Counted from the stretch's first letter, positions 24,669 to 39,976 are shown. The stretch is DNA of 64,000 nt from a virus (IMGVR_UViG_3300042446_002028:8785-72784), one strand, 5' to 3'. A program made the numbers and translations. The notes: a model not told the origin generated them from the letters alone.

Positions 24669-24721
24669 ATATCGTTTAATCTAACGATAAAATCTGTTAT
24701 CGTCTATATTGACGATTAATA

Positions 24722-25042: not shown

Positions 25043-25047
25043 ATATG

Positions 25048-25129
25048 TGACCAAGGAGAGATTCGAACTCTCACGTCTTTCGACACTAGTGCCTAAAACT
25101 AGCGTGGCTCCCATTACACCACTCGGCCA
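25048..25129 (-). tRNA. tRNA-Leu(UAG), class II
   Basis: Acceptor stem GGCCGAG/CUUGGUC. Anticodon arm CUAGU-UUUAGGC-ACUAG reads UAG, with a long variable arm, in the cloverleaf folded by hand. Confidence 0.75.
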
Positions 25130-25135
25130 TTATTG

Positions 25136-25208
25136 CGCTCCCTGAGGGTCACGATCCCCCGACTCCATCATTAACAGTGATGTGCTCTACCAACTGAGCT
25201 AAGAAAGC
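25136..25208 (-). tRNA. tRNA-Asn(GUU)
   Basis: Acceptor stem GCUUUCU/AGGGAGC. Anticodon loop CUGUUAA reads GUU in the cloverleaf folded by hand. The T-loop is the non-canonical AUCGUGA. Confidence 0.75.
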
Positions 25209-25213
25209 GATTG

Positions 25214-25288
25214 TAGGGTAAAGAGGACTCGAACCTCCATGATGCCTTGCTCCCAAAGCAAGTGACTTAGCCATTAGTCCATTACCCT
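25214..25288 (-). tRNA. tRNA-Pro(UGG)
   Basis: Acceptor stem AGGGUAA/UUACCCU. Anticodon loop UUUGGGA reads UGG in the cloverleaf folded by hand. Confidence 0.75.
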
Positions 25289-25296
25289 ATTTATTG

Positions 25297-25370
25297 TGAT
25301 CCCATCAGGGATCGAACCTGAAACCCCAATCTTAGAAGGATTGTGCTCTATCCAATTGAGCTATGGAACC
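25297..25370 (-). tRNA. tRNA-Arg(UCU)
   Basis: Acceptor stem GGUUCCA/UGGGAUC. Anticodon loop CUUCUAA reads UCU in the cloverleaf folded by hand. D-arm GCUCAAUUGGAUAGAGC. Confidence 0.8.
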
Positions 25371-25486
25371 AATTTAATGTAATGTCTGTACGGTTTGTAT
25401 CTAATCAGCACCTTTGTACGCGCTTCAAAAGTTTCCATTTCATACATAGCGTCTGTTCCGTCACCTATTACTAGGTCATTACATTG

Positions 25487-25571
25487 TACTCGAGGCCGGA
25501 CTCGAACCGGCACGGACGTTTCTGTCCAAGGGATTTTAAGTCCCTCGTGGCTACCATTACACCACTCGAGC
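25487..25571 (-). tRNA. tRNA-Leu(UAA), class II
   Basis: Acceptor stem GCUCGAG/CUCGAGU (G1-U72). Anticodon arm AGGGA-CUUAAAA-UCCCU reads UAA, with a long variable arm, in the cloverleaf folded by hand. Confidence 0.75.
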
Positions 25572-25630
25572 ATTTCTTTCTCAATATGTCAAAGAACTCC
25601 TTTTCAAATATAAAGATAATAAATTGTAAA

Positions 25631-25662
25631 ACAAAAAACCCGAACATTTTTAGTTGTTCGGG
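25631..25662 (-). terminator. Rho-independent terminator (reverse strand) downstream of the secreted-protein gene and upstream of tRNA array 1
   Basis: Hairpin CCCGAACA...TGTTCGGG. The A6 run on the forward strand is a T-run downstream on the reverse strand. Confidence 0.5.
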
Positions 25663-25847
25663 TCTCGATATTAGTTTAAAAAATTTATTTATCCTTTATT
25701 GATATCCGAACATATGTAACATAACGGTTGCACACCATACCCATTACCATTATTAAGGGGTCTCGTACTCGTTGATATGTTATTTATATTCTTCATCGTT
25801 TTAATAAGTATATGCAAATATATTAAAATTATCAATAGTTAATAAAA

Positions 25848-26297
25848 TTATTTCACTTTATATGATAATCCAAGCCCTAATGTGAAATCATCACCAATTA
25901 TATTTCCAATTGTCCATAGATTTATAACACTACTTGGTCTAAGTGGATTGTACATTATAAGAAAATTAGGTTTATTTCCATTAAGTGTTGGTTGTAATCC
26001 AAACCCAACAATCGCTTTGTCCTCTTTTACTTGTCTAAGAACGCCAAACTTCATGTTATCGGATACGTTTCCTGTTTTGGTGTTGACACCAGGTGGAATT
26101 ACAATTCCACCGTTTTGACCACCCAATTCGCCATATGGAAGACCAGCATAGAATCCCCAACCTTTCTTCATAAAAGCACCTGTTATATAACCATCTGATG
26201 GACCACCTTTTCGAGTGGCGGTTATAAACCACTCTTGTCCATTTGCCACGACTTCCACTCCCAAAAGTAACGTTAGCATTAAAATAATTTTTTTCAT
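25848..26297 (-). CDS. Secreted hypothetical protein (signal peptide)
   Basis: N-terminus MKKIILMLTLLLGVEVVANGQ. 149 aa, Gly-rich. Confidence 0.5.
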   Translation of the reverse strand: MKKIILMLTLLLGVEVVANGQEWFITATRKGGPSDGYITGAFMKKGWGFYAGLPYGELGGQNGGIVIPPGVNTKTGNVSDNMKFGVLRQVKEDKAIVGFGLQPTLNGNKPNFLIMYNPLRPSSVINLWTIGNIIGDDFTLGLGLSYKVK

Positions 26298-26596
26298 TTT
26301 TTTGATTTGGTTAAGGAATCTTCCTTAGCCCACTTATCTTTTAAAATAACAACCTTCTCAATCTTTACAATTTTACCATTCAATTTGGTAATCTCGTCCG
26401 TGATTTCTTTGGTTTTGACGGCCCTGCTAGCGTAATTATCATCTGTTGCTTCAACCCATTCAATTTTTCTTTCAAGAGCTTTAATCTCTTTTTTAATTTG
26501 ATTGTAGGTCTTTCTTTCGTCGGAAAAACTTGGGTCGATAGAGGATGTTAATGTGTTAAAAAATAACATTAACGATAATGTGATTTTATCTATCAT
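26294..26596 (-). CDS. Membrane-anchored coiled-coil protein
   Basis: A 100 aa ORF with an N-terminal hydrophobic segment. An ATATTTATA box lies immediately upstream of the start. Confidence 0.45.
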   Translation of the reverse strand: MIDKITLSLMLFFNTLTSSIDPSFSDERKTYNQIKKEIKALERKIEWVEATDDNYASRAVKTKEITDEITKLNGKIVKIEKVVILKDKWAKEDSLTKSKK

Positions 26597-26674
26597 ATAT
26601 TATAAATATTAATAATATGGTAAAAATACAAAATAAAATATTGGGAATCAATAGTTTAATATATAAAAAGATTG

Positions 26675-26746
26675 TACTCAGTACGGGATTCGAACCCGTA
26701 TTACCTCCGTGAAAGGGAGGTGACCTAACCCTTAGTCGAACTGAGC
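26675..26746 (-). tRNA. tRNA-Glu(UUC)
   Basis: Acceptor stem GCUCAGU/ACUGAGU. Anticodon arm CCUCC-CUUUCAC-GGAGG reads UUC in the cloverleaf folded by hand. Confidence 0.8.
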
Positions 26747-26947
26747 AAGTGACACCATAATTTATCCAGCTTACAGGTGCCTTAGTTGTCCCCGACAAAT
26801 GTCAGGTTAGGAATAATCATTTCGTCCTCACGAGGTCGGGCTGATAAACCCAGACGTTATTCCTATACGTCTATGTACGTTCCCATACGGTTGTCAAACC
26901 GTTTCTCATCATATTGGGCATATTATTCGACGACTAAACGAATCGTG

Positions 26948-27033
26948 CGGAGAGAGTAGGATTCGAACCCACGGTTCCTTTCAGAACTTCGGTTTTCAAG
27001 ACCGACGCGATAGACCAACTCTGCCATCTCTCC
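26948..27033 (-). tRNA. tRNA-Ser(UGA), class II
   Basis: Acceptor stem GGAGAGA/UCUCUCC. Anticodon arm UCGGU-CUUGAAA-ACCGA reads UGA, with a long variable arm, in the cloverleaf folded by hand. Confidence 0.8.
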
Positions 27034-27132
27034 AAATTATCACATCAAACAGACATTCTACTCCCAGCTCCGAGGAATTGTATCTAACTTAGCCCATCTC
27101 ACCGCTGTATGGGTACCTGAAGATATGATTTG

Positions 27133-27206
27133 CGGACTGTACGGGACTCGAACCCGTGAACTCTACCGTGACAGGGTAGCATGATAACCAACTTCACCAA
27201 CAATCC
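27133..27206 (-). tRNA. tRNA-Asp(GUC)
   Basis: Acceptor stem GGAUUGU/ACAGUCC. Anticodon arm CUACC-CUGUCAC-GGUAG reads GUC in the cloverleaf folded by hand. T-arm ACGGGUUCGAGUCCCGU. Confidence 0.75.
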
Positions 27207-27525
27207 GAAATTGATTCTAACTCACCTTAAGTTGCACCATCCGAGTCATAGCTTTGGTTGACAAAGTCCTCGTTGAGTTAGTATCAAAAAAAAATAACAA
27301 GTTTTTCGCACCCATTCGTACATCATAACCAACATATCCCTACGTTGGTGGCTACACTTTCGTCATTGGGGTAATTATTCCCGACTTGTAGTAACTCTAC
27401 TCTCACCGCTATAATACCGCGAATCAAGGCGGGTGTTGAGATTTATAGACAGTGGGGTTTCACCACCGTCGTCACCTGTTATACAAATATAAATTAAATT
27501 TTTTAAAATTCAAAATACATTTTTG

Positions 27526-27593
27526 TTGCGGGGCCAGGAGTCGAACCTGGAACACTCGGCTTATGAGACCGGTGGGAAACCATTCTCCCCGCA
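27526..27593 (-). tRNA. Short (68 nt) tRNA-like element with a CAU anticodon loop (Met/Ile2/initiator-like; D-arm reduced)
   Basis: Acceptor stem UGCGGGG/CCCCGCA. Loop CUCAUAA. T-arm CCAGGUUCGACUCCUGG. The D region is only about 12 nt. Confidence 0.45.
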
Positions 27594-27595
27594 AT

Positions 27596-27673
27596 ATGGG
27601 GTGATTGACGAGATTCGAACTCGCTTTATTCTAGCGCCACAAGCTAGTGCTCTACCATACGAGCATCAATCAC
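27596..27673 (-). tRNA. tRNA-His(GUG), with CCA encoded
   Basis: Acceptor stem GUGAUUG/CAAUCAC, discriminator C73, then CCA. Anticodon arm CUAGC-UUGUGGC-GCUAG reads GUG in the cloverleaf folded by hand. Confidence 0.8.
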
Positions 27674-27675
27674 AG

Positions 27676-27746
27676 AGTCAGGTATTGGATTCGAACCAAT
27701 GTACGAGGTTTTGCAGACCTCTGCCTAGCCACTCGGCCAACCTGAC
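27676..27746 (-). tRNA. tRNA-Cys(GCA)
   Basis: Acceptor stem GUCAGGU/ACCUGAC, discriminator U73. Anticodon arm GAGGU-CUGCAAA-ACCUC reads GCA in the cloverleaf folded by hand. It lies 2 nt from tRNA-His. Confidence 0.75.
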
Positions 27747-27750
27747 TAAT

Positions 27751-27795
27751 TACTTCCGACTTTGGCGGTGTTTTACTTCCGACTTTGGCGGTGTT
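27751..27795. repeat. Tandem direct repeat, 2 x about 22 bp (tacttccgactttggcggtgtt)
   Basis: The sequence tacttccgactttggcggtgtt-t-tacttccgactttggcggtgtt is readable directly, between tRNA-Cys and tRNA-Arg. Confidence 0.8.
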
Positions 27796-27848
27796 GTTCA
27801 CTTTTGTTCTCTGTTCACGAACCGTGAACAAGCAACTTTTGTGAACAT
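27796..27848. promoter_or_regulatory. Cluster of GTTCAC/GTGAAC half-sites including a perfect palindrome GTTCACGaacCGTGAAC: candidate operator or processing site within tRNA array 2
   Basis: The sequence tgttcacttttgttctctgttcacgaaccgtgaacaagcaacttttgtgaaca carries gttcac twice and gtgaac twice in inverted arrangement. Confidence 0.35.
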
Positions 27849-27850
27849 CG

Positions 27851-27922
27851 AGGTCTCTAAAGGATTCGAACCTTTACCAAAACATCCGTAGTGTTTCATG
27901 CTATCCGTTACACCAAAAGACC
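27851..27922 (-). tRNA. tRNA-Arg(ACG)
   Basis: Acceptor stem GGUCUUU/AGAGACC. Anticodon arm AAACA-CUACGGA-UGUUU reads ACG in the cloverleaf folded by hand. Confidence 0.8.
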
Positions 27923-27929
27923 TTATTTG

Positions 27930-28000
27930 CACGGGTAGAGAGATTCGAACTCCCATCGAGGGTTTTGGAGACCCGTATGCTGCCGTTGCACCATACCCGC
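27930..28000 (-). tRNA. tRNA-Trp(CCA)
   Basis: Acceptor stem GCGGGUA/UACCCGU (G1-U72), discriminator G. Anticodon loop CUCCAAA reads CCA in the cloverleaf folded by hand. Confidence 0.75.
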
Positions 28001-28005
28001 GTGTG

Positions 28006-28079
28006 TGACCCCGAATGGACTCGAACCATTGACTCCCTCATTAAAAGTGAGGTGCTCTAACCAACTGAGCTACGAGGTC
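28006..28079 (-). tRNA. tRNA-Lys(UUU)
   Basis: Acceptor stem GACCUCG/CGGGGUC. D-arm GCUCAGUUGGUUAGAGC. Anticodon arm CCUCA-CUUUUAA-UGAGG reads UUU in the cloverleaf folded by hand. Confidence 0.8.
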
Positions 28080-28084
28080 ATTTG

Positions 28085-28157
28085 TGGAGATAGTTGGTTA
28101 CGATCCAACTCCTCTGGATTTTCAGTCCAGTGCTTCTACCAAGTTAGCTTCATCTCC
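28085..28157 (-). tRNA. tRNA-Phe(GAA)
   Basis: Acceptor stem GGAGAUG/UAUCUCC. Anticodon arm CUGGA-CUGAAAA-UCCAG reads GAA in the cloverleaf folded by hand. The T-loop is AUCGUAA. Confidence 0.75.
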
Positions 28158-28162
28158 TTATG

Positions 28163-28235
28163 TTCTTAGGGGTAGATTCGAACTACCAACCTCCTCGGTA
28201 TCAGCGAGGTACTCTCACCATTGAGTTACCTAAGA
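28163..28235 (-). tRNA. tRNA-Ile(GAU)
   Basis: Acceptor stem UCUUAGG/CCUAAGA. Anticodon arm CCUCG-CUGAUAC-CGAGG reads GAU in the cloverleaf folded by hand. Confidence 0.8.
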
Positions 28236-28622: not shown

Positions 28623-29405
28623 TTACTCACCCCAGTGGTTTTTTCTTAATTCATACATATCAATTGGTTCGCGTTTCATATGTCCACCTTTTGAGAAATT
28701 AGCGCCTTTTTTAAGATAACCACCTAAGAAGTTTCTTCTCATTCTATTTGAGTTATTTGCTTCTGATCCGTGAACACAATGCGAGTGCAGTAACACCACT
28801 TGACCTTTTCTTAAGTAACCTTCCACCTTACGGAAGTCGTGTCCTTCAGGCATTACACATGGTTTACCTCTTTCATTACTCCAAAACGCTGGGTTTGTTT
28901 TTGTTCGTTCCTCATCCACCTCAATTGGTAATACTGGTAAACGATGAGAACCCTCATAGTTCCACACAGCACCATTTTCTGGGTCATGATTATCTAATGC
29001 TAATGCAGTGTTAATAATTTCGTTATGACCACATTTTGTATAAAACGCATTTTGATGTTGGTCTCTACCTAATTGTCCTGGCGGTTTAAAATAACACCAA
29101 CTTTGCATACCCTGGATTTCACCTTCCATTAAAAACTCCACGGCTTCCAATACTTTAGGGTGCGCAAATAGTTTCGCCAATTTATCTGAAAGTTTATGCG
29201 GATAAGCAAATGGGTCCCACTCGCCCCATGTTTTACCGTCTGGCGCTTCGGTACCGGTTCTTTCGTTTCTTAACCTATTCAATTCCTCGTTTATTTCATC
29301 ACATTCATTCTCGGTTAATAACTCTAAAACAGTAAATCCGCGATGTCTCCAGTCAAATGTAATTTGCTGGACTTCTAAGTCACTAAGATGTTTAAAATTT
29401 GACAT
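28623..29405 (-). CDS. Phytanoyl-CoA dioxygenase (PhyH)-family 2OG-Fe(II) oxygenase
   Basis: A 260 aa ORF starting at ATG 29403-29405 (MSNFKHLSD...). The listed start at 29462 is an upstream alternative start. Confidence 0.5.
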   Translation of the reverse strand: MSNFKHLSDLEVQQITFDWRHRGFTVLELLTENECDEINEELNRLRNERTGTEAPDGKTWGEWDPFAYPHKLSDKLAKLFAHPKVLEAVEFLMEGEIQGMQSWCYFKPPGQLGRDQHQNAFYTKCGHNEIINTALALDNHDPENGAVWNYEGSHRLPVLPIEVDEERTKTNPAFWSNERGKPCVMPEGHDFRKVEGYLRKGQVVLLHSHCVHGSEANNSNRMRRNFLGGYLKKGANFSKGGHMKREPIDMYELRKNHWGE

Positions 29406-29588: not shown

Positions 29589-30128
29589 ATGAAATATAAT
29601 TCCGGCAGTTTGTATGTATCGATACTACCATTATTGTGCCTTTTTTTGTTATTAATCCCGTTTACGGATAATAGAACGCCACAACAAAAAAATGTATATG
29701 TAGCTAGTGTTGAAAACAAAATTAAAATAGGTCGATTAACGGCTAATAAAAACTTGGCATTTGGATGTAAAAACATTTTCCAAGAAATCTTACAAGATAA
29801 AGATTTTGCGATTGTTGAGTCGTTAGAAAACGCTGATTATGTTTTGAATGTTGAAATTTTGTTTTTTGATGTAAACAGAACAAAAAGAAACATTTCAGTA
29901 TTCCATTCGGACGTTGAGGAAACTCTAGTAACTATGAGGGGTACACTAAGTGATAAAAATGGTAAAAAAATAAAAGAAGCGGTCGCAGAGGAATCTAGCA
30001 CCGAAATATCAACATCAACTTTAATAACTGATGAGGGTAGTGGTAAAATAAATCAACAAGCACTTTCTTCCGCCACTAAGAAAACTTGTGAAACATTAAT
30101 TAATAAATTATTAACAACTAAAAAATGA
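29589..30128 (+). CDS. Secreted/lipoprotein-like hypothetical protein
   Basis: ATG at 29589 gives MKYNSGSLYVSILPLLCLFLLL, a signal-like N-terminus. The listed start at 29565 is an upstream alternative start. Confidence 0.45.
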   Translation: MKYNSGSLYVSILPLLCLFLLLIPFTDNRTPQQKNVYVASVENKIKIGRLTANKNLAFGCKNIFQEILQDKDFAIVESLENADYVLNVEILFFDVNRTKRNISVFHSDVEETLVTMRGTLSDKNGKKIKEAVAEESSTEISTSTLITDEGSGKINQQALSSATKKTCETLINKLLTTKK

Positions 30129-31777
30129 AAAAACTATTATTTATCGGCATTTTCCTATTAGTCGCTATTACATCTTTTGGTCAATTAACAATCAGTCAAT
30201 CATTAACCCCAGCAACAAATTTAAAGGTTGGTGATACTATTACTGTTAAGTATACATTAACAAAGGGAACAGTAATTAAGAACCCTCGTTATCTTTGGTT
30301 TAGATATCAACACAACAATAAAGCATTGACATATGTTTCAACAGTATTTAATCAAGGAACATCGGCACAAACATTCTACACAGGTTGGAATAATTATAAA
30401 TTCACACCAAATAGTGGTGCAAGTGATAACGATTTGAATGTTCAATATGGTTTAACTCCTTGGGGTTATTCAGTAAATGCTGATTGGAACGCTGGGCAGT
30501 TGACAGTTCAAAGAGCTGACCAATCTATTAATGGATTAATTGCAACACAAAAATATGTGTTAAAAGATCAGAACACCTATAATAACATTTTCAGAATAGA
30601 TTTAGCCACAGGTACCGATACCACCGGCGCTAATGTTGGTACAATATATAGTGGTGGTTGGTCATCTTTAACGGGTGTTGTTGGTAACACATCACAATTT
30701 AAGGTTAAAGTATTGTTTCCACAGGGTTACATCATTACTGACCATAACGTTCAGTTAATGAAATTGAAATCAGATGGTAGCGGAGATATTGATTGGACAC
30801 AACAACCTATTGCACAATTACCATTAGATGCTAGTGGTGAAGTGTTATTTACCACACAAGTTAAAGTGGGTGATTCTGTTGGTGTATTTGTTAGCCCCGC
30901 AATGACTAAAGCATGGATGAATAACATTGTAACGGTATCTGATGCTTATAAAGCATTCTTGGGGCATTCACAAACAGATATTAGTGGAACCGCAAATTAT
31001 TTTACATTACCAGCATTAGAAAAGAAAGTTGGTAAGGTTACACTTAACACAAACGCATTTGGTGAAGCAGATTCATACGCTTTATTTGCACATGTAATGG
31101 GACAAAACATGTCAACAACCGCAATGATTCCAACCAATACTTCAACATCCGTAAGGTGGTATAGTGGATTATTAAATCAGAGCTGGTTAGATGGCGTGGT
31201 TAAGAATAGGGTATTAATTGATACTCCAATAAAAGAAGTTCACGCAGTATTTGCCTGGGGTGGCGACTTAAACTGGTCACATTCATCAGATCCGTCGGTG
31301 ATTGCTAGTAGAATAAGTTCTGGAATATACACTAACTCAATAAATGGTGAGGTAAATGCGTTGAAAACCATGAGTATATCAACACAAATGGCATATCAAA
31401 CAGCAGCAGTTGAAACGGCTAAATTGGGAGTATCTTCAGCATTAGAAAATGGTAAAGTTGTATTAACAACCACATTAACAAAAGCAGAATTGGCGGGTTT
31501 ACAGGTAATTATGAATTATGATGAATCTAAATTAACATTAGACAACATAATATTTGATGCGGGCTCTAGTGTTACTAACTTTTCAACACACGAAAATGGT
31601 AGATTAACATTTGGTTCTATGGATCAATTAAAAAGTGCTAGAATTAAAGTTGGTACTCCGTACAAATTAATTTTCACACCAAAAACAACTTTAACAAATA
31701 CCGCCGGTTTATTCTACTTTGTTTTATCTGATGCTGTTGACGCGAAAGGAAATAAAGTTGATTTAATCGTTGAGTAA
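30125..31777 (+). CDS. Secreted beta-rich protein with a C-terminal cohesin-like domain
   Basis: Signal peptide MKKLLFIGIFLLVAITSFGQ. The C-terminus ...LQVIMNYDESKLTLDNIIFDAGSS...RLTFGS...YKLIFTPK resembles a cohesin beta-sandwich (F.L.YD..L motif). It is paralogous to the C-terminus of the next gene. Confidence 0.5.
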   Translation: MKKLLFIGIFLLVAITSFGQLTISQSLTPATNLKVGDTITVKYTLTKGTVIKNPRYLWFRYQHNNKALTYVSTVFNQGTSAQTFYTGWNNYKFTPNSGASDNDLNVQYGLTPWGYSVNADWNAGQLTVQRADQSINGLIATQKYVLKDQNTYNNIFRIDLATGTDTTGANVGTIYSGGWSSLTGVVGNTSQFKVKVLFPQGYIITDHNVQLMKLKSDGSGDIDWTQQPIAQLPLDASGEVLFTTQVKVGDSVGVFVSPAMTKAWMNNIVTVSDAYKAFLGHSQTDISGTANYFTLPALEKKVGKVTLNTNAFGEADSYALFAHVMGQNMSTTAMIPTNTSTSVRWYSGLLNQSWLDGVVKNRVLIDTPIKEVHAVFAWGGDLNWSHSSDPSVIASRISSGIYTNSINGEVNALKTMSISTQMAYQTAAVETAKLGVSSALENGKVVLTTTLTKAELAGLQVIMNYDESKLTLDNIIFDAGSSVTNFSTHENGRLTFGSMDQLKSARIKVGTPYKLIFTPKTTLTNTAGLFYFVLSDAVDAKGNKVDLIVE

Positions 31778-31778
31778 T

Positions 31779-34067
31779 ATGAAAAAATTATTAGTAATAT
31801 ATTTTTTACTAATTTCAGTTTTAGGGTTCGGACAGAGTGTATCTGCTCCGGACTCTAAATCATTTATACCATCCACAACAGCACAAGATGGAAGTGGATT
31901 CCAATTAAGTGGATTTAGTGCAACATCAACTTTGTTAGCATCAATCAGTTTAATAAATCCATCAACAAATACAACATTTTATCTAACCACAACAACAGGT
32001 TTAACCGCCGCAAGTGGATTTACTTTGACGGGTAATAAAACTCGTTTGGTGGTAACGGGAACGATGGTTAATATCAATAGTGCATTAGCGTCTCTAAAAA
32101 TAAACACAGGTTCAGTTGTTGGTAATGTTCAACTATCGGTGGCAGCAACTGTAAATCCAGTTGGATATTTTTACAATGGAGTAAACGGACACTTTTATAG
32201 ACCAATATCAATTGGCACAACATACACTGGAGCAAGAGCTGCGTCATTATTAACCACATTCAAAGGACAGACGGGATATTTGGTAACAATAACATCGGCA
32301 TCAGAAAATGCTTTTATATTTTCTAATGTACCGCAAGCTAATATATGGTTTGCGGCAACCGATGAAGTTAAAGATGGTACTTGGGTAATTGATGCGGGAC
32401 CTGAAAAAGGTACAGTAATGAAAACCTCAAATGGGCAAACTGCGGGAAATATTCCCGGCGTTTATAATAACTGGGCATCAGGTGAACCAAACGGTAATAA
32501 TGGTAGTGAAAACTATGCAGTAACTAACTGGAATAGTCAACCAACTTGGAACGATTTATCAAATAATTGGAATAACCCGTACATAATCGAATACGGAACT
32601 TGGACTAACCCTGATGATGCTACTTTTACTGAATTCTATACAAATAGTGTAACTCACTCAAATGGAGAAGTATTAAGAGCATCGTTCAATATTGATTTTG
32701 GAACTAATATAGATGAAACTAAATTCACCGCAAAAGGATATACATTTACAAATAACAATTGGAATGTAGTAAATGGAACTGCTAGACAATTGAGTGGATT
32801 AGGTAAAGTTGATTTAACAAGTTTGTTGGATACTGCAAAAGTTTCAAATGGTGGGATTAAAGCAACAACATCCGCAGGGCAAGTTGAGTGGGCAATAATA
32901 AATCCATATGATGCAAATTTAGGCGGACATCAATTATTAATAGACGAAAGAGAATTTGATGGGACAGGGGTGTCCCCAAACAATATAACATCAATTAAAT
33001 TATTTGACATATACGATGGACCAGTTAGTATTCATAGTGTAGGTGGTTTTTGGAAAACGTATGTAATGCCGGGTAATTTAACAACCAAAATAACTTCATC
33101 AACATTTCAATCTCAATTAAGATTACAAGATGGTTGGTATGGAACTAAGGCAGAATTTAGTTTCTCACCAGTAATAGTATATAAACCACACGGAATAGAA
33201 CTATCCCATTCAAATCAAACGGAACTAAACACATTATATAGTAATATAGTAGGCGTATCCGATGTATATTTGGCATTTAAAGAATTGGCAGATAAAGGTA
33301 TATTGGGTAATCAAAGTGGATTAGGATTAACAAATGGTATTCAGTATTTGAATGCAGATGTGGATGGTAATGGTATATTCAATGAAGCGGACACATACAA
33401 ACTATTACAACATCTAACTGGGGTTCAATCACTTTCACAATCCACTGCATTAACGTATTTGATGAAATTATATAATAAATCGGATTATGATGCTATAACA
33501 ACAAGCAACTGGGGGACACAATTTAATTCATCTCGTAATTTAATTCCATTTACGCTAGGTAGTTTAAACAACACATACAATATAAGTGTAACTTGGTTGG
33601 GTGATGTAAACCTTTCACATTCTGCACAACAAAGTGTAAGTAGTGTTACAAGTAATTCCATAAGAAGTATGAGTTTGATGACAAATTCAGTTTCGAACCA
33701 AATCAACGCATATCTAATGGGTGAAAATGTTGGTGGTAAGTTAATTGTAACGATTTCGGTAGACCCTTTACAACAAGAATTAGTTGGCACACAATTCAAT
33801 TTAAACTATGATAATACCGCTCTAAAATTTGAAAAGGTAGAATTCACCACAAAGGGAACACCTACCAATTTTGGAACTGATAGAGGTACATATGTAACAT
33901 TGGGTTCATTGATAACTGACGGCTCAACTACATTGGATAAAACAACTGAATATAAAGTAACATTCTTACCATCAATAGGATTAAATGGTATTTTGGGATT
34001 AACATCAATATCAAATACTGATGCTGTTAATAAAAACGGATTTCAATTAAAAGTAAAAATAAACTGA
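31779..34067 (+). CDS. Secreted multidomain protein: C-type-lectin-like domain, dockerin-like Ca-binding repeat and C-terminal cohesin-like domain
   Basis: Signal peptide MKKLLVIYFLLISVLGFGQ. The segment YNNWASGEPNGNNGSENYAVTNWNSQPTWNDLSNNW matches the CTLD WxxGEPN...WND signature. DVDGNGIFNEADTYKLLQHLTG matches the type-I dockerin repeat DxDGNGxxNxxDxxxLxxxLxG. The C-terminus contains FNLNYDNTALKFEKVEF. The listed start at 31770 is a TTG. Confidence 0.55.
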   Translation: MKKLLVIYFLLISVLGFGQSVSAPDSKSFIPSTTAQDGSGFQLSGFSATSTLLASISLINPSTNTTFYLTTTTGLTAASGFTLTGNKTRLVVTGTMVNINSALASLKINTGSVVGNVQLSVAATVNPVGYFYNGVNGHFYRPISIGTTYTGARAASLLTTFKGQTGYLVTITSASENAFIFSNVPQANIWFAATDEVKDGTWVIDAGPEKGTVMKTSNGQTAGNIPGVYNNWASGEPNGNNGSENYAVTNWNSQPTWNDLSNNWNNPYIIEYGTWTNPDDATFTEFYTNSVTHSNGEVLRASFNIDFGTNIDETKFTAKGYTFTNNNWNVVNGTARQLSGLGKVDLTSLLDTAKVSNGGIKATTSAGQVEWAIINPYDANLGGHQLLIDEREFDGTGVSPNNITSIKLFDIYDGPVSIHSVGGFWKTYVMPGNLTTKITSSTFQSQLRLQDGWYGTKAEFSFSPVIVYKPHGIELSHSNQTELNTLYSNIVGVSDVYLAFKELADKGILGNQSGLGLTNGIQYLNADVDGNGIFNEADTYKLLQHLTGVQSLSQSTALTYLMKLYNKSDYDAITTSNWGTQFNSSRNLIPFTLGSLNNTYNISVTWLGDVNLSHSAQQSVSSVTSNSIRSMSLMTNSVSNQINAYLMGENVGGKLIVTISVDPLQQELVGTQFNLNYDNTALKFEKVEFTTKGTPTNFGTDRGTYVTLGSLITDGSTTLDKTTEYKVTFLPSIGLNGILGLTSISNTDAVNKNGFQLKVKIN

Positions 34068-34960
34068 TGAAAAAACTAATAATAATTCTGTCACTAATTT
34101 CGATAACATTTGTTACAAACGCACAAATTGTAAAACCAGATACATTACAACTATCGGCAAAAGAACTATTTGGAGAAAGTGATGATTGGAACGATGTGGG
34201 TATATTACAATCGTATGTTAATTTTTCAAAAGATGTACTTTCGTCGTCAAACCTTTCAGTAGGTGTAATAGGAAAGCAAGTGTCTACTACTCTTAATTTG
34301 GGGTATCATAAATCATCTATGAGCGGACAATGGGGACATACATATGCGGCATCCATAAATCCTATATGGAATTATTATGGCGTGGGATATGGCCTCAGTA
34401 GAAATTCAGAAAAAAGAACAACTACAATACAAACATTTTACTCAACCGATTTTGATTTTCAAAAAGATATCACCCTATCGTTTATTGATGTGTTTAGATC
34501 TAAGAAGTGGGGCACATTTGGTTATAGTTTAACCGCATCAAAATCTTTTTGGGGGACTTACCAAGGTGAGTGGGAAGGGAAATATACGGTTGATGAAAAT
34601 GGCGATTTTAAAGATTTAATATATCCAATGATACCGGCATCAAGTGAAATAAGTTATAGAGGTATGGTGATGTACACATATACATTGAAAACAAAGAGAG
34701 TAAACATTTCACCACAAATATTCGCAATGAGTGATATCTATAAAGTATTTAAAGACGGAACGGCTTCAGATTTAGCATATCTAAATGATTTCAATTTGGA
34801 TTTGTATTATGGAACATCTATTGACTGGAAGATAACTAAAAGATTTGTGTTAAATACTAATATAAGATATAACACAACTTGGGATAAATTAAGTGAATCA
34901 GTTGGTTATAAAAAGAGTAACCCAATAATGTTTATGATAGGAACAAACTTTCAATTCTAA
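34067..34960 (+). CDS. Outer-membrane beta-barrel-like protein (signal peptide, C-terminal Phe)
   Basis: N-terminus MKKLIIILSLISITFVTNAQ. Alternating amphipathic strands. It ends ...MIGTNFQF. Confidence 0.45.
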   Translation: MKKLIIILSLISITFVTNAQIVKPDTLQLSAKELFGESDDWNDVGILQSYVNFSKDVLSSSNLSVGVIGKQVSTTLNLGYHKSSMSGQWGHTYAASINPIWNYYGVGYGLSRNSEKRTTTIQTFYSTDFDFQKDITLSFIDVFRSKKWGTFGYSLTASKSFWGTYQGEWEGKYTVDENGDFKDLIYPMIPASSEISYRGMVMYTYTLKTKRVNISPQIFAMSDIYKVFKDGTASDLAYLNDFNLDLYYGTSIDWKITKRFVLNTNIRYNTTWDKLSESVGYKKSNPIMFMIGTNFQF

Positions 34961-35301
34961 TGAAGAAGATAATATTAATATCATTGATTTTATTAGCTGG
35001 ATGCACAAAAGTGGAGATACCAACACCAGATATTCCGGTTGAAAAGATATTCAATGTGGATGAAAGTAAGGTAACAAATGGTCAATCAATATATTTCGAT
35101 TTACCCTCATCCGGAACCTATATGTTAACCTTAATTGATGCAACAACGAATCAAGTAATTAGCCGAGAAAAATTTATTGGGCAAAATGGTGAAAATATTA
35201 AGAAGATTTACACCAATTCTTTACCTAAAGGATATTTATATCTAGTACTTGAGGATGTAGATAAAAACCAATTAAAAAAGACAAAAATAATTATAAACTA
35301 A
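34960..35301 (+). CDS. Lipoprotein with a T9SS C-terminal-domain-like beta-sandwich
   Basis: Lipobox LLAGC. The C-terminus SGTYMLTLIDATTNQVISREKF...NSLPKGYLYLVLEDVDKNQLKKTKIIIN matches the Por-secretion CTD pattern (..YDv.G..v....g....i...LpkGvY.v.v.....kkiiv). Confidence 0.45.
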   Translation: MKKIILISLILLAGCTKVEIPTPDIPVEKIFNVDESKVTNGQSIYFDLPSSGTYMLTLIDATTNQVISREKFIGQNGENIKKIYTNSLPKGYLYLVLEDVDKNQLKKTKIIIN

Positions 35302-35306
35302 AATTA

Positions 35307-35684
35307 ATGAAAATGAAAAAAATTCTCACAATAGTATTATTATGTGTGGTTTTAACAGGTTGTTATAAAGATGATATTATGCCAACACCACAATCAGTAT
35401 CTGAAGAACTTAAGATGACAAGTTCGGTGGGTATTAAGTTACAAACGGCATTTGTTACCTCGGAAGTGGCAATGAATGTTAAAACTGAAACAGCAGGTTC
35501 GGTTACGGTTAAAATATTCGATATAGGAAATAGGGTTGTTTCAAAAGAAACCTTAAACGTGGTTGCTGGCGACAATCTTTTAAAGGTATACACTAGCGCT
35601 TTACCATCATCGGCATATAGAATTGGATTATTTGATTCTAATGGAAAACAATTAGGAATTACCGATTTTAATAAAATACAATAA
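35307..35684 (+). CDS. Lipoprotein with a T9SS-CTD-like domain (paralog of 34960-35301)
   Basis: Lipobox VLTGC. The C-terminus GSVTVKIFDIGNRVVSKETL...YTSALPSSAYRIGLFDSNGKQL matches the same pattern. Confidence 0.45.
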   Translation: MKMKKILTIVLLCVVLTGCYKDDIMPTPQSVSEELKMTSSVGIKLQTAFVTSEVAMNVKTETAGSVTVKIFDIGNRVVSKETLNVVAGDNLLKVYTSALPSSAYRIGLFDSNGKQLGITDFNKIQ

Positions 35685-35703
35685 TTATATAAAAACAAAT
35701 ATT

Positions 35704-36387
35704 ATGGCAGACAGAAACGGAGACGGAATAGTATATCATCGCTCAGATTGTGGAGATAACTATGTAAGATTTTATGGATTTGGTGGTGATGGTCCTTGTT
35801 CAACATGTGAAACATGGGGACTTACCGATAAAGCAATAAGATACATTCACGACCATCCTGAAATAAATCACAGAATTGAAGATGTCGTGGGTGGAGAGTG
35901 GGATGATAAAGTTGTTCCAATTTTTAAAGAAACTTATGAAGAAGTAAAAGAGGGTGTAATAGATGCGTACAACTGGGCAGATGCAAATGCTTGCAATATA
36001 GCAGTAACGGCAGCAATCTCGGCTGGAATTGTTTACGCATTCACGCCAGAACCAGCAAATCCAACAGCGGTGGCAACATCAACAACTTTATCGGTAATGG
36101 CATCAACCATCACTAGTATGGCGGTTAAAGTTGCGGTAGTGGGAGAAATGAGTGAAATTATAAAAGATGCATTTTTACTAATGCCATATGTTAGTGATAG
36201 TATTGACCACACACTATTAAAAAATATAATTTCAAATTGTTTAGCAAAGAGTTTAGATTCTGCGGCGTTATGGGCAACACCGGCTGGAGTTGGTATTGCA
36301 ATTGGGGCGGCTTTTGCACCTGTTATTGCAGATTTGATATGTAAAAAAACTTGTCCTGAAGGGTTTACTAAGGCGTTTGGGGCATAA
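35704..36387 (+). CDS. Hypothetical protein with a Cys-rich N-terminus and hydrophobic C-terminal half
   Basis: A 227 aa ORF with CGDNYVRFYGFGGDGPCSTCETWG followed by several Ala/Val-rich predicted TM segments. Confidence 0.4.
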   Translation: MADRNGDGIVYHRSDCGDNYVRFYGFGGDGPCSTCETWGLTDKAIRYIHDHPEINHRIEDVVGGEWDDKVVPIFKETYEEVKEGVIDAYNWADANACNIAVTAAISAGIVYAFTPEPANPTAVATSTTLSVMASTITSMAVKVAVVGEMSEIIKDAFLLMPYVSDSIDHTLLKNIISNCLAKSLDSAALWATPAGVGIAIGAAFAPVIADLICKKTCPEGFTKAFGA

Positions 36388-36425
36388 TGTTAACAAAATA
36401 AACTAAAAAACTAAAAACAAATACA

Positions 36426-36734
36426 ATGGCAGAAGAACAAGAACAAGATGGAACCTGGTCAGGTTTAAAAAAGACAATAGTTGGGGTTGCAACTACATTA
36501 GTGACGGCAGGTGGAGTATGGTTATCAACACTTTTAGGTGGTGGTGACAAAGCAGAACCGGCACCCGTACAAGCGGCGCCTGTAATTAACATTACCAACT
36601 CACAAACACAGCAACAAGCAGCGGGTGGTGGTAAAACAGTAATAATTAAAGAAAAAGGGGCAACTTCAGCACCAGCACCTAAACCTAAGAAAAAAGAGGG
36701 TGACGAATTTAAAGAAGAAGCACCTAAGTGGTAA
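36426..36734 (+). CDS. Small membrane protein
   Basis: A 102 aa ORF with one TM segment (IVGVATTLVTAGGVWLSTLLGGG) and a Pro/Ala-rich tail. Confidence 0.4.
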   Translation: MAEEQEQDGTWSGLKKTIVGVATTLVTAGGVWLSTLLGGGDKAEPAPVQAAPVINITNSQTQQQAAGGGKTVIIKEKGATSAPAPKPKKKEGDEFKEEAPKW

Positions 36735-36748
36735 AAACATATTAAAAA

Positions 36749-37378
36749 ATGGTAGAAAACAAGCAACCACCAAGTGGTTTTAAAGATTTATTAAGTAACA
36801 TGATGGCCAGAAGATGGTACATCACAGCATTGGTATTGGGGGGATTTATGTTTATTATAGGTGGAATGTTCTTTGCTATATTAAATAAATCAGCAATCGA
36901 AGGAGAATGGAAAGAACTTTTATTATTATTATTGGGTGCATTTATCGGTAGTTATGGTAAAATAATCGACTATTGGTTTAGTGATACAGATAAGGATAAG
37001 ATGTTAGTTCAAAAAATGGATGAGGAAGATGGTACTGCATTAAGCAATACCGCAGATTTACCTGTAACTCCGCCAAACAACACACCAATCATACCTGAAG
37101 CGTTTCAAAACGCTATTGAAAACTCAAAAATAGAAAAGGTAAACGATACGTTTGAACAAGTACCAACTACACAACCAAGAACAGGTATTGAAGTTGATGA
37201 AGATGGTGATGGTATAATGGATGGTATTGATTTTGATGGTGATGGTAAAATTGATGCGTATTTTGCACATAGACAATGTGAACACGTTTGGGGTGACTTA
37301 GACGGAGACGGTACTGAAGAATGTTTAAAATGTGGTAAAATTCGAGATGATTACGCGGAAATGCCCGCGGAAGGATAA
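36749..37378 (+). CDS. Membrane protein with Ca-binding-like DxDGDG repeats and a Cys cluster
   Basis: TM helix WYITALVLGGFMFIIGGMFFAIL. DEDGDGIMDGIDFDGDGKIDAYF is EF-hand or thrombospondin-type-3-like. CEHVWGDLDGDGTEECLKCGK is present. Confidence 0.4.
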   Translation: MVENKQPPSGFKDLLSNMMARRWYITALVLGGFMFIIGGMFFAILNKSAIEGEWKELLLLLLGAFIGSYGKIIDYWFSDTDKDKMLVQKMDEEDGTALSNTADLPVTPPNNTPIIPEAFQNAIENSKIEKVNDTFEQVPTTQPRTGIEVDEDGDGIMDGIDFDGDGKIDAYFAHRQCEHVWGDLDGDGTEECLKCGKIRDDYAEMPAEG

Positions 37379-37416
37379 AACGACCAAATAAACAATATAA
37401 ACCAAAAACAAAAATT

Positions 37417-37665
37417 ATGAATTTCAAACAATGGGCAATTGAACTCTTCAAAGACGAAAGAGGTTCAATTTCAGTAAAACCAGTTATAGCATTTGTAGGG
37501 GCAATGTTCCTATGTGTAACTATGATCTTAAATTCGTTCTCTCACGCAGAATTTGCTCCATCACCTGAATTGGTGAATGCTGTGATGATTATCACAGGGA
37601 TTGGAATGGGTGCTGATACAATGGATAAATTCTCTCATAAAAAGAAAGAAGAAACAGAAGGTTAA
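37417..37665 (+). CDS. Small membrane protein
   Basis: An 82 aa ORF with two hydrophobic segments. Confidence 0.4.
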   Translation: MNFKQWAIELFKDERGSISVKPVIAFVGAMFLCVTMILNSFSHAEFAPSPELVNAVMIITGIGMGADTMDKFSHKKKEETEG

Positions 37666-37670
37666 TACGA

Positions 37671-37697
37671 AAGGGAGTTTTTAACTCCCTTTTTTTA
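37671..37697 (+). terminator. Rho-independent terminator
   Basis: Hairpin AAGGGAGTT-ttt-AACTCCCTT followed by T7. Confidence 0.65.
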
Positions 37698-37719: not shown

Positions 37720-38463
37720 ATGACAAAAAACGAAATACTATACAATGTTGGTTTAACCGAGAAAGTATATTCAGAAGAAAAAGACATTGATTTTAAAGCG
37801 CTAAGATTAAAATTAATTAAATGGATTGAGGATAAAAAATCAGACACACAAGGGTTTGTTGCAACAAAAGACAAATCTATCTATATCGTTTGGAGAGGTA
37901 GTTCATCTAAAAAAGATTTTCAAAACGACGCGTCAATTGATAAAGTACCATTTGTTCAAGATGGTGAAAAAGTTCATATTGGTTTTAAATCGTCTTGGGA
38001 TTCTGTAAAAGACAAAACATACGAAGCATTTGAAAAGGCGTTATCAACGTTAGGTGGTGAAGGTGAGGTCGATAATATTATTGTTTGTGGTCACAGTTTG
38101 GGTGCCGCGGTTTCTACCTTATGCGCATATGAGATTTATTCAATTTATAAATCAAATAAGATTATATGTTGTACTATCGGTAGTCCAAGAGTTGGAAATA
38201 AAATATTCAAACAAAACTTTGATAAATCATCAATTGAATCTTTAAGAATCGTCCATAATTTAGATTTGGTTACCCGCGCACCAAATATTGGATACTATCA
38301 CGTTAATACCGAATTAAGGATTGATGATGAGGGTAAAATTAAAAAATGGATGATTGATACGAAAAGAGTAACTGAATATCTTAAAGCAGTTTTTACAGGT
38401 CAGACCGTTAAAGACCATATGACAAGTAATTACATAAGTGCATTAAATAAATGGAATCCTTAA
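37720..38463 (+). CDS. Class-3 lipase / alpha-beta hydrolase
   Basis: Nucleophile elbow IVCGHSLGAAVSTL (GHSLG), the lipase_3 hallmark. 247 aa. Confidence 0.7.
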   Translation: MTKNEILYNVGLTEKVYSEEKDIDFKALRLKLIKWIEDKKSDTQGFVATKDKSIYIVWRGSSSKKDFQNDASIDKVPFVQDGEKVHIGFKSSWDSVKDKTYEAFEKALSTLGGEGEVDNIIVCGHSLGAAVSTLCAYEIYSIYKSNKIICCTIGSPRVGNKIFKQNFDKSSIESLRIVHNLDLVTRAPNIGYYHVNTELRIDDEGKIKKWMIDTKRVTEYLKAVFTGQTVKDHMTSNYISALNKWNP

Positions 38464-38954: not shown

Positions 38955-39671
38955 ATGAAACTAATATTAACAATTTTAGCAGTTTTAGTGTCTATAACGG
39001 CATTTAGTCAAACAATAGGCACAACTAAAACGGAAAATTATAAAGCGTCTTTTGAAACAAAAATAGACATAAGTCAATTTTTGGACTACGACGGTCCGCA
39101 AATTCCAATACAAATTCTTAAAGCGGGTATCAGTGACGAAATGTACGAAATGTACCCAGAACTTAAAGAAAAAAGAGTTGGTTTGGGCGTTGCCAATATA
39201 ACAATGGAATACCTTGAAAACTTAAATAGATTCAAATTTACTGAGGATAAAACCGAAATAAAGAATCGTATGGTAAAACAATTCCAGGCATCTCAATCTG
39301 GGATATCGGAAAACAAACTAGATGGCAGGGGTAAAATTAATCTAGCGAAGTATTTTGTAACAGTAGAATGTTATGATTATTCGATTTCTGAAGATGAAAC
39401 GGTTAATTTAAAGGATGGTGTTAAAGACAATATGGTTACACGTATTGGTTTACAGGTAAGATTCACTGACGCTGAAACTGGAGTATTATTCGGGGCGTCT
39501 GGTTTGGGTGAGGCGGTAACAAATAGACAATTAACGTTATTATCTGACGCAACAGTAGATCCGATTAAATTTAATCAGTCAACTATCTCAATTGCAACAA
39601 AAAAAGCGTTAGACATTGCTTGTGCAAGAATTCTAGATAGAATGATTAAAAAGGGGATTTTTACCGAATAA
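38955..39671 (+). CDS. Secreted hypothetical protein
   Basis: ATG at 38955 gives MKLILTILAVLVSITAFSQ, a signal peptide. The listed start at 38871 is an upstream alternative start. Confidence 0.5.
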   Translation: MKLILTILAVLVSITAFSQTIGTTKTENYKASFETKIDISQFLDYDGPQIPIQILKAGISDEMYEMYPELKEKRVGLGVANITMEYLENLNRFKFTEDKTEIKNRMVKQFQASQSGISENKLDGRGKINLAKYFVTVECYDYSISEDETVNLKDGVKDNMVTRIGLQVRFTDAETGVLFGASGLGEAVTNRQLTLLSDATVDPIKFNQSTISIATKKALDIACARILDRMIKKGIFTE

Positions 39672-39739: not shown

Positions 39740-39976
39740 ATGAGAGTGTGTGAAGTTATAGATGTACCACAAAAAGTTGATTGTGAAAATTGCGTCCCTT
39801 GTTTGAGGTTAAAAATGATGGAGATGGGCTTTATATGTGGGCAACAAATTGAAATAAGTGAAAAAAAGTTAGGATTATACTTGGTTAATATTCTATCTGG
39901 AAGTGGTCACGTAGAATCAACTTTAGCATTAAGACCTGAAGAATTGGATAGAGTTATTTTAAAAAATATATTATGA
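39740..39976 (+). CDS. FeoA-like (SH3-like) small protein
   Basis: RLKMMEMGFICGQQIEISEKKLGLYLVNILSGSGHVESTLALRPEELDRVIL matches the FeoA consensus (r.LldlGl.pGe.ievv...p.g.pi.v.v.g..lalr..eA..I.V). Confidence 0.5.
   Translation: MRVCEVIDVPQKVDCENCVPCLRLKMMEMGFICGQQIEISEKKLGLYLVNILSGSGHVESTLALRPEELDRVILKNIL

Follow-up and report, generated by a model that had tools for sequence, protein, structure and literature searches.

Cohesin-dockerin pairing is the textbook case of programmable extracellular protein assembly; it occurs in cellulosomes and, outside them, in a small number of bacterial and archaeal proteins. The locus described here raises the question of whether a phage uses modules of this kind to build a lectin-bearing complex in its host's envelope. 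It lies at positions 29589-35684 of a 64-kb stretch of viral DNA (IMGVR_UViG_3300042446_002028:8785-72784), which we refer to in full as the window, and consists of six closely packed genes on the + strand, A to F, whose coordinates and reading frames we checked. Every one of the six products has a hydrophobic N-terminus. A first-pass annotation of the window had singled out B and C as secreted proteins with cohesin-like C-terminal domains, C also being credited with a dockerin and a C-type lectin-like domain (CTLD). We find that B and C end in the same module, in which a degenerate dockerin-like segment precedes a domain of predicted cohesin fold, that C carries what is by homology a C-type lectin head, and that related phage proteins bear other heads on this module. 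The features of B and C that are needed below are the following.

30125-31777, + strand: gene B, 550 aa; secreted, N-terminal ~260 aa without assigned fold, then dockerin-like/cohesin-like module
30911-31120, + strand: dockerin-like segment of B (residues 263-332), fully degenerate, no canonical calcium loop; local hidden Markov model (HMM) E = 1.8e-22
31262-31285, + strand: motif of B between its dockerin-like and cohesin-like parts, as GD(V/L)N.SHS
31394-31774, + strand: cohesin-like domain of B (residues 424-550); local HMM E = 5.5e-44, homologous to the modelled domain of C
31779-34067, + strand: gene C, 762 aa; signal peptide, N-domain, CTLD, middle region, dockerin-like segment, linker, cohesin-like domain
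32187-32588, + strand: C-type lectin domain of C (residues ~137-270), from Pfam Lectin_C and PDB profile
32484-32555, + strand: predicted Ca2+/sugar site of C, E236-P-N238, E244 and W257-N-D259, which aligns to EPN...E...WND of surfactant protein D
33231-33443, + strand: dockerin-like segment of C (residues 485-555), its first repeat (IVGVSD + helix) degenerate, its second canonical
33357-33392, + strand: canonical EF-hand/dockerin-type calcium loop of C, D527-V-D-G-N-G-I-F-N-E-A-D538, conserved in C-type sequences
33600-33623, + strand: GDVNLSHS motif of C between its dockerin-like and cohesin-like parts
33681-34064, + strand: cohesin-like beta-sandwich of C (residues 635-762), from a model of pLDDT ~90 and from Foldseek and PDB profile matches

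B and C share a C-terminal module that ends in a cohesin-fold domain

Like D, both proteins begin with Sec signal peptides, which end in ...FGQ or ...NAQ (...SFGQ in B, ...FGQ being found in both B and C), and their C-terminal ~280-290 residues are common to both, with 28% identity (BLASTP E = 7e-18). The description of two consecutive signal-peptide proteins with a common C-terminal domain was therefore right, in coordinates and frames as well as in homology. In this module, a degenerate dockerin-like two-helix segment is followed by a GDVNLSHS motif, a Ser/Thr-rich linker and, at the extreme C-terminus, a cohesin-fold beta-sandwich. A module profile made from the two sequences of B and C, searched against 1.84 billion representative proteins, retrieved 200 clusters at E ≤ 0.001, and in nearly all of these ~200 clusters the match reaches the last residue of proteins of 500-880 aa. 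The same profile also reached a genuine five-cohesin protein (Pfam Cohesin, 170.8 bits). In a local HMM scan of all open reading frames (ORFs) of the window, no cohesin- or dockerin-like segment was found besides those of B and C.

How firm the cohesin assignment is depends on the level at which it is made. The Pfam Cohesin model (PF00963) scores 20.7 bits in C, which is below its gathering cutoff of 24.1, and gene B has no match in Pfam, NCBIfam or PHROG. Among relatives, the Cohesin model matches 32 of 49 close homologues (E < 0.1) and, in the wider family, 40 of 80 members (E < 0.01), and it exceeds the cutoff in some of them (27.1 bits in P0255 and 24.4 bits in P0163). When a profile of 40 module sequences was compared with 177,635 PDB sequences (E < 10), the 20 matches comprised nine cohesins, eight dockerin-bearing chains and three others, namely two "serine protease" chains on the dockerin-like segment and one unrelated enzyme. 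The cohesins align to profile positions ~150-250, with E values of 2.2e-5 for 3l8q and ~1.6e-3 for 2y3n and 1tyj. The AlphaFold2 model of C residues 470-762 has a mean predicted local distance difference test score (pLDDT) of 70.6 and a predicted template-modelling score (pTM) of 0.73; its beta domain has pLDDT ~90 and resembles solved cohesins, which are nine-stranded jelly-roll beta-sandwiches. In a Foldseek search of this model against the PDB, the top 50 matches are almost all cohesins, the rest being CBM2-type sandwiches. The best match is the Clostridium perfringens cohesin 2jh2 (E = 5e-8); the top matches, which include the Archaeoglobus fulgidus cohesin 2xdh, reach a probability of 1.0, with template-modelling scores, normalised by the length of the target, of 0.64-0.68. 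These findings indicate that the cohesin assignment proposed for B and C is sound as regards the predicted fold, although it is borderline at the level of Pfam.

Between the two parts of the module, the residues G, D, S, H and S of the GD(V/L)N.SHS motif are invariant in all sequences of our conservation set, which holds 60 unique C-type sequences (58-100% identity) and 63 B-type sequences. The region has low pLDDT in the model of C and leads into a variable Ser/Thr-rich linker of low model confidence. The motif might act as a third site for metal, as a site of processing or as a glycosylated region.

The N-terminal domain of B (30125-30900) gave dozens of weak profile matches (E 0.06-1) to antibody heavy-chain variable (VH) and nanobody sequences over residues ~45-107, where the pattern WLRYQ...YVS...FY...F..S...SLY.QY can be set against the VH pattern WVRQ...WVS...YY...RFTISRD...LYLQMN. 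This domain may be an immunoglobulin (Ig) V-set-like sandwich. The VH matches are not significant alone, and we did not use them as evidence.

The dockerin-like segment is degenerate

The family consensus of the first part of the module reads IVTVSD-helix ... DVNxDGxFDxxDxYxLLxH ... GDVNLSHS. In C, the repeat that had been quoted as a textbook type I dockerin, DVDGNGIFNEADTYKLLQHLTG, is present at residues 527-548. It contains a canonical EF-hand-like calcium loop, in which D527, G532, F534 and D538 are invariant in the 60 C-type sequences and D529, N531 and N535 are kept in 58 of them. The first repeat of C retains only loop positions 5, 9 and 12. B has no canonical loop: in the B-type sequences, positions 1 and 3 of the second loop are K/N/L and T/S, the acidic residues being gone. 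Two tandem F-hand repeats of ~22 residues, each with a calcium loop, are thus found in neither B nor C.

Pfam Dockerin_1 (PF00404) is not significant, with no match in C at E ≤ 1, three matches in the 49 close homologues at best E = 0.06 and two in the 80 family members at 0.0078. All eight dockerin-bearing PDB chains align to one stretch of ~40 positions (profile positions ~27-71), with matches that are weak singly (3ul4_B, E = 0.0078; 4uyp_B, 0.063; 5m2s_B, 0.11, over both repeats; 8ajy_B, 1daq and 2mte). The model of C places helices at residues 493-504 and 536-547, where they are expected, with pLDDT of about 55-85. On this evidence the segment is best called a degenerate element, dockerin-derived or dockerin-like, and the label of textbook type I dockerin was an overstatement of which the canonical calcium loop in the second repeat of C survives.

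C carries a C-type lectin head, and other heads occur on the same module

The lectin assignment for C held in full. The signature WASGEPNGNNGSENY...WNDLSNNW is present as quoted at residues 232-264, and Pfam Lectin_C (PF00059) scores 26.6 bits, above its gathering cutoff of 22.6, and matches 49 of 49 close homologues. In a comparison of the CTLD family profile with the PDB, 54 of 54 matches are CTLDs, including CEL-I, surfactant protein D, mincle and mannose-binding protein; the best is CEL-I (E = 1.2e-4, residues 137-270). The EPN, E and WND site residues are invariant in the 60 C-type sequences. An EPN motif in a CTLD predicts ligands of the mannose/GlcNAc/glucose type. Residues 133-275 of C are without cysteine, so the domain has none of the disulfides of animal CTLDs. 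Homology and motif both identify the head of C as a genuine C-type lectin domain, whose predicted sugar- and calcium-binding site is intact.

Other proteins of the family carry other heads. Among 80 members, we assigned PA14/GLEYA domains to 19, Lectin_C to five and LCCL to two, the remainder being without an assigned head, and in loci L088 and L089 a PA14-type protein fills the exact slot of C. The presence of different heads on the same module, with PA14 in the slot of C, points to a design in which a swappable glycan-binding head is joined to a constant connector.

The carriers are freshwater jumbo phages assigned to a Bacteroidota host

The window is phage DNA. Its terminase large subunit (61228-63006) has 25-28% identity to the large subunits found in T4-like Microcystis, Flavobacterium and Synechococcus phages, which bears out, at a distance, the description of the phage as T4-like. 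An array of 22 tRNA genes (24087-28235, - strand) lies directly upstream of the cassette region. Against 50,697 GenBank phage records, the cassette has no match by blastn at the nucleotide level or by tblastn at the protein level. Identical or near-identical copies are found on freshwater metagenome contigs of 270-330 kb. The carriers are a clade of freshwater jumbo phages, with contigs of up to ~330 kb and a distantly T4-like terminase.

Signal peptides of nearly all 80 family sequences, and of at least seven other proteins of the window, are cleaved before Q, as in the Q-rule described for Bacteroidetes (PMC5837995). Because of these Q-rule signal peptides, which are the best evidence for the host phylum, we assign the phage to a Bacteroidota host, probably of the Flavobacteriales. 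The first-pass annotation had arrived at the same phylum; its inference was right, but the type IX secretion system (T9SS) argument that it offered fails (see below). Among 185,579 GTDB species genomes, the sole match is L009 (JBIPMA010000251.1, 3368 bp), a contig in a Schleiferiaceae metagenome-assembled genome from Lake Mendota, with B- and C-like genes of about 70% identity. This contig is probably phage DNA that was binned in error, and it gives no more than a hint to the host family.

Elsewhere in the window there are five more Q-rule signal-peptide proteins without family assignment (1310-1942, 25848-26297, 38955-39671, 39973-40824 and 40828-42225). As judged from its predicted signal peptides, the number of proteins that this phage exports to the envelope of its host is unusually large. 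PfkB-family kinase, cytidylyltransferase-like and cupin genes stand in a row at 42256-43779 (Pfam labels on the identical locus L001), the first two recalling HldE-type ADP-heptose synthesis, and a glycosyltransferase gene lies at 4955-6208. This gene content suggests that the phage also modifies surface glycans. Further neighbours are a PhyH-family (phytanoyl-CoA dioxygenase-like) 2-oxoglutarate- and Fe(II)-dependent oxygenase (28623-29405, - strand; Pfam E = 8e-22), which is divergent to gene A, a Lipase_3/esterase gene (37720-38463) directly past the operon terminator and a Lon-like ATP-dependent protease (54135-56165; PHROG 4871, E = 6e-233).

The operon is conserved and extends beyond F

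The remaining genes of the unit and its end are as follows.

29589-30128, + strand: gene A, 179 aa; exported or membrane-anchored, first gene of the unit
34067-34960, + strand: gene D, 297 aa; outer-membrane beta-barrel, accessory
34960-35301, + strand: gene E, 113 aa; lipoprotein, lipobox LLAGC
35307-35684, + strand: gene F, 125 aa; lipoprotein, lipobox LTGC
35704-36387, + strand: G227, further co-directional gene
36426-36734, + strand: H102, further co-directional gene
36749-37378, + strand: I209, further co-directional gene
37417-37665, + strand: J82, further co-directional gene; these four are tightly spaced, with no strong terminator between
37669-37693, + strand: intrinsic-terminator-like hairpin, an 11-bp stem followed by a T-run, which ends the unit

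The extent originally given for the module, 29589-35684, covers genes that are real but stops short of the end of the unit, which runs on through four more genes. The hairpin at 37669-37693 is the first strong + strand terminator downstream of 29589, and because no strong terminator comes before it we take the unit to be about ten genes (29589-37693), nearly all of them envelope-targeted. H, I and J have hydrophobic segments and are probably transmembrane proteins. Promoter scans, for sigma-70-type promoters and for the Bacteroidota -7 motif TAnnTTTG, did no better in the window than in shuffled sequence.

For synteny we compared 80 IMG/VR loci, taken from 277 contigs with matches (the related loci including L010-L089), over which the order A-B-C-(D)-E-F-H102-I209-(J82) is kept. 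A stands upstream of B in all related loci that extend that far (70 of 80), and E follows C, or D, in all that extend far enough in the other direction (76 of 80). H102 and I209 come after F in nearly all sufficiently long loci and J82 in about half, and the position of G227 varies among related phages, after F, before D or after I209. The operon of this clade is a conserved set of envelope-targeted genes.

Two of the downstream products have calcium-loop-like features. G227 (227 aa, no signal peptide, no family match) has an EF-hand/dockerin-like loop at its N-terminus (ADRNGDGIVYHRSD) and a hydrophobic C-terminal half. The conserved I209 has two transmembrane segments and, at its C-terminus, three DxDGDG-type calcium-loop-like repeats (DEDGDGIMD, DFDGDGKID and DLDGDGTEE) with a cysteine cluster (C..C..C). 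Since its topology suggests a cytoplasmic C-terminus, I209 is probably not a partner of the cohesin domains.

A, D, E and F are envelope-targeted proteins, and E and F do not qualify as T9SS cargo

For A, homologues in sister phages have cleavable signal peptides ending in ...AQ or GQ. One of these homologues reaches 25.5 bits with Pfam Lipoprotein_16 (PF03923; cutoff 25) and others 22-25 bits, the window's own A having no Pfam match; some members of the A cluster are labelled "lipoprotein YajG" by JGI, and one homologue has a weak match to TraT (E = 7.5e-4). From these similarities, A would be a distant YajG/Lipoprotein_16-like exported protein. With the secreted protein encoded at 38955-39671, A has only a short C-terminal similarity (E = 0.027). 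PDB sequence searches with the A profile, with D and with the E/F profile gave nothing usable, and PHROGs has no family for A-D.

D has a signal peptide, a predicted all-beta antiparallel barrel and a C-terminal aromatic beta-signal, as expected of an outer-membrane barrel. The earlier reading of D as an outer-membrane barrel is thus supported, but D is not a constant part of the cassette: it lies between C and E in 35 of 76 related loci. Its mean identity is 88%, versus 67-77% for the flanking genes, and in L051, L065, L081 and L083 a G227-like ORF is found directly upstream of it. D looks like a recently spreading accessory cassette. We considered whether it might be a PorP/SprF-type partner (PF11751/TIGR03519) of type-B T9SS cargo and rejected this idea, as D has no Pfam or NCBIfam match at E ≤ 1 and is absent from half of the related loci.

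E and F are a conserved paralogous pair of outer-membrane lipoproteins, with lipoboxes LLAGC and LTGC. The mature part of E is one small domain, presumably a beta-sandwich. In F, the residues C-Y-K-D-D at the lipobox fit the surface export signal of Bacteroidota lipoproteins, K-(D/E)2 (PMC5080379); the acidic pair (D-D) is not conserved in homologues. Both proteins had been described as T9SS C-terminal-domain (CTD)-like lipoproteins. That they are lipoproteins is confirmed; the T9SS similarity stays well under the cutoffs, with 16.1 bits for E with Por_Secre_tail (cutoff 27) and 16.7 bits with TIGR04183 (cutoff 23), and 14.3 and 12.9 bits for F with the same models. Four of six members of the E/F family match T9SS sorting-domain models (best E = 0.0057), and DUF3244 and FlgD_ig match E and F about equally well, all being sub-threshold in F. 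Since the CTD-like domain is the whole mature part behind a signal peptidase II (SPII) lipobox, and not a tail on cargo exported with a signal peptidase I (SPI) signal, E and F are not T9SS cargo. As for B and C, the T9SS CTD models TIGR04183 and TIGR04131 and Pfam Por_Secre_tail (PF18962) have no match in the 80 B/C-family sequences (B, C and 78 relatives). PHROG matches of E and F to Cor and to an Rz-like spanin cover only the signal peptide, and we dismissed them as lipobox artefacts.

A lectin complex in the host envelope and its alternatives

What might such proteins do? The explanation that we favour, and to which we give about an even chance of being right, is that the phage encodes a self-associating lectin complex in the envelope of the infected cell, which perhaps masks surface glycans, a function that we infer. 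B and C would be exported by Sec into the host envelope during infection, where they would bind glycans in a Ca2+-dependent manner, the EPN motif predicting sugars of the mannose, GlcNAc or glucose type. The dockerin-like and cohesin modules would serve protein-protein assembly. Since B and C are the sole carriers of the module in the window, their partners would most likely be each other (B-C, C-C or head-to-tail chains), or the dockerin would fold back in cis on its own cohesin. The outcome would be a multivalent lectin complex that E and F hold at the outer membrane. In the most speculative step, this complex would coat the surface glycans of the infected cell or of its debris, and the coating would keep other phages, or the progeny of the phage itself, from adsorbing (receptor masking or superinfection exclusion), with head swapping tracking glycan diversity among hosts. 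A bolder version, possible but in our view doubtful, is that the clade encodes a cellulosome-style assembly in which swappable lectin heads (CTLD, PA14 and LCCL) on a dockerin-cohesin connector polymerise after export to a lipoprotein-anchored, multivalent glycan-binding lattice on or around the infected Bacteroidota cell.

Several points count against the favoured explanation. With one calcium loop in C, none in B and a Dockerin_1 model that is not significant, canonical cohesin-dockerin binding may not occur, and the pTM of 0.73 for the two-part model, which suggests that its parts have a defined arrangement, may reflect packing of the helical segment against its own cohesin in cis. B and C have no T9SS CTD, no lipobox and no recognisable outer-membrane route, and may therefore stay periplasmic until lysis, which weakens the idea of surface coating. 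Finally, the host is assigned indirectly, and the link to superinfection exclusion consists of location and architecture only.

Alternatively, the operon could aid adhesion or nutrient capture, its lectins either tethering the infected cell (to particles, algae, mucus or further cells) or catching polysaccharide for uptake, so as to boost resources or host encounters and not to block adsorption. CTLD, PA14/GLEYA and LCCL heads are classic adhesin or carbohydrate-binding domains, and the nearest cohesin structures come from the glycoside-hydrolase complexes of C. perfringens, carbohydrate-active assemblies of a non-cellulosomal kind. Freshwater Flavobacteriales make their living on particles and polysaccharides, and the phage has further sugar-related genes (the glycosyltransferase and the PfkB and cytidylyltransferase-like genes). 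We nevertheless consider such a role rather unlikely, as the cassette has neither an enzyme nor a SusC/D-like transporter, new adhesion would be of little benefit in a short lytic cycle, and surface exposure is unsupported. The strictly C-terminal position of the cohesin-like domain suggests another possibility, namely that it is a divergent T9SS-type sorting or anchoring signal, with B and C as surface cargo and E and F interacting with the same machinery or competing for it. The host phylum uses T9SS, sorting domains likewise sit at the extreme C-terminus, the cohesins of scaffoldins usually occur as internal repeats, BFVD has a structural homologue (A0A6J5M064) under the name "Secretion system C-terminal sorting domain", and E and F match Por_Secre_tail or TIGR04183 repeatedly, though weakly, in four of six members. 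Yet type A CTDs have about 70-80 residues versus ~125 here, the 80 B/C-family sequences are without a T9SS CTD match, the Foldseek top 50 (cohesins and CBM2-type sandwiches) include no T9SS CTD structure, and E and F are domain-only lipoproteins without cargo. We regard this reading as distinctly unlikely.

Virion decoration, which had been suggested for the pair, is very improbable. Phage virions often bear displayed Ig-like and lectin-fold domains (PMC9853417), which speaks for decoration or receptor-binding proteins attached to capsid or tail by the cohesin-dockerin module, and the module could in principle dock on a structural protein encoded outside the window. However, B, C and nearly all of the 80 family sequences have cleavable Sec signal peptides, so that the proteins leave the cytoplasm, where the virions of tailed phages are assembled. 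In addition, the operon to which the genes belong encodes lipoproteins and membrane proteins and is distant from the terminase gene, and the other ORFs of the window offer no cohesin or dockerin partner. As to chance motif matches in low-complexity secreted proteins, the sub-cutoff scores of Pfam Cohesin in C and of Dockerin_1 would allow for them, but Lectin_C is above its cutoff and found in all 49 homologues, all 54 PDB matches of the CTLD are CTLDs, the module profile matches essentially only cohesins and dockerins in the PDB, Foldseek gives a probability of 1.0 on a domain with pLDDT of 90, and the functional residues are invariant across sequences of 58-100% identity. This last explanation is effectively refuted.

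Novelty and implications

All of A-F are named "hypothetical protein" in NCBI, JGI and ENA, and in UniProt one homologue bears the label "Secretion system C-terminal sorting domain". A full-text literature search over about 8 million papers retrieved no description of phage-encoded cohesin-dockerin modules, and such modules are absent from a 2025 cellulosome review and from a review of phage carbohydrate-binding proteins. The assertion that cohesin-dockerin modules had no earlier description in a T4-like phage therefore agrees with the literature searched. Non-cellulosomal cohesins and dockerins are already known, as are bacterial CTLDs; what is new is the phage setting, the fused C-terminal connector and the swapping of heads.

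A dockerin-like/cohesin connector on lectin heads would extend this assembly principle to viruses and to the Gram-negative envelope. If the lattice exists, it would be the first cohesin-dockerin system in a virus and the first in a Gram-negative envelope, and would amount to an extracellular scaffold, built by a virus, with which the host surface is re-engineered, for instance through receptor masking, competitor exclusion or the gluing together of cells. If the lectins bind the host's own surface glycans, they would provide a new route to receptor masking or superinfection exclusion, and head swapping would report on the glycan diversity of uncultured freshwater Bacteroidota. The phage clade is abundant, with 277 IMG/VR contigs and thousands of metagenome proteins. 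The finding points as well to a large class of phage genes that is wholly unannotated, comprises about ten genes for envelope-targeted products in each genome and would act on the host surface and not on replication or the virion. The compact module of ~280 residues may also serve as a part for protein engineering.

Comparison with known systems

In function, the closest analogues of the cassette would be T5 Llp, Cor, T4 Imm/Sp and plasmid TraT, which are small exported proteins or lipoproteins that alter the cell surface during infection; the analogy is functional only, with no sequence homology established. To our knowledge, none of these exclusion systems uses lectins or cohesin/dockerin modules. 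E and F resemble T9SS type A sorting domains in a similarity that is weak and recurrent and spans most of the mature protein, and in a strand pattern that looks similar by eye, but differ from them in scores well under the cutoffs, in having no cargo and in their SPII instead of SPI signals.

The lectin domain of C is close to the C-type lectins of the collectin/CEL-I kind, with homology above the cutoff and the full EPN...E...WND site known from surfactant protein D and mannose-binding protein. Unlike animal CTLDs, it is without cysteines and is set in a bacterial-type secreted multidomain protein. It also differs from the lectin fold of Mtd and diversity-generating retroelements that is usually discussed for phages.

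With cellulosomal type I and II cohesins, the C-terminal domain shares the beta-sandwich, and its F.L.YD..L strand motif aligns to cohesins of the ScaB/CipA type; likewise, the loop D-x-D/N-x-D/N-G-x-F/I-D/N-x-x-D and the helix of the segment upstream align to the repeats of cellulosomal dockerins. Differences from these systems are the Pfam scores at or under the gathering cutoffs, the single cohesin at the C-terminus, the degenerate first repeat and a context that is not cellulolytic. With any solved cohesin, the phage domain has only 10-20% sequence identity. Its best structural matches are the non-cellulosomal cohesins of C. perfringens (GH84C/NagJ and GH33/NanJ; 2jh2, 2vo8, 2w1n and 2o4e) and A. 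fulgidus 2xdh, with Foldseek E values of 5e-8 to 8e-7. Some non-cellulosomal proteins, for example in Archaeoglobus, hold a cohesin and a dockerin on one polypeptide. As in the C. perfringens and A. fulgidus systems, the modules of the phage join secreted carbohydrate-binding or -active proteins and not cellulases. In contrast to both, the carrier is a phage, the target is a Gram-negative Bacteroidota cell, at most one calcium loop is present and there are no catalytic domains, and the dockerin and cohesin parts are fused in a fixed order as a C-terminal unit, with GDVNLSHS between them.

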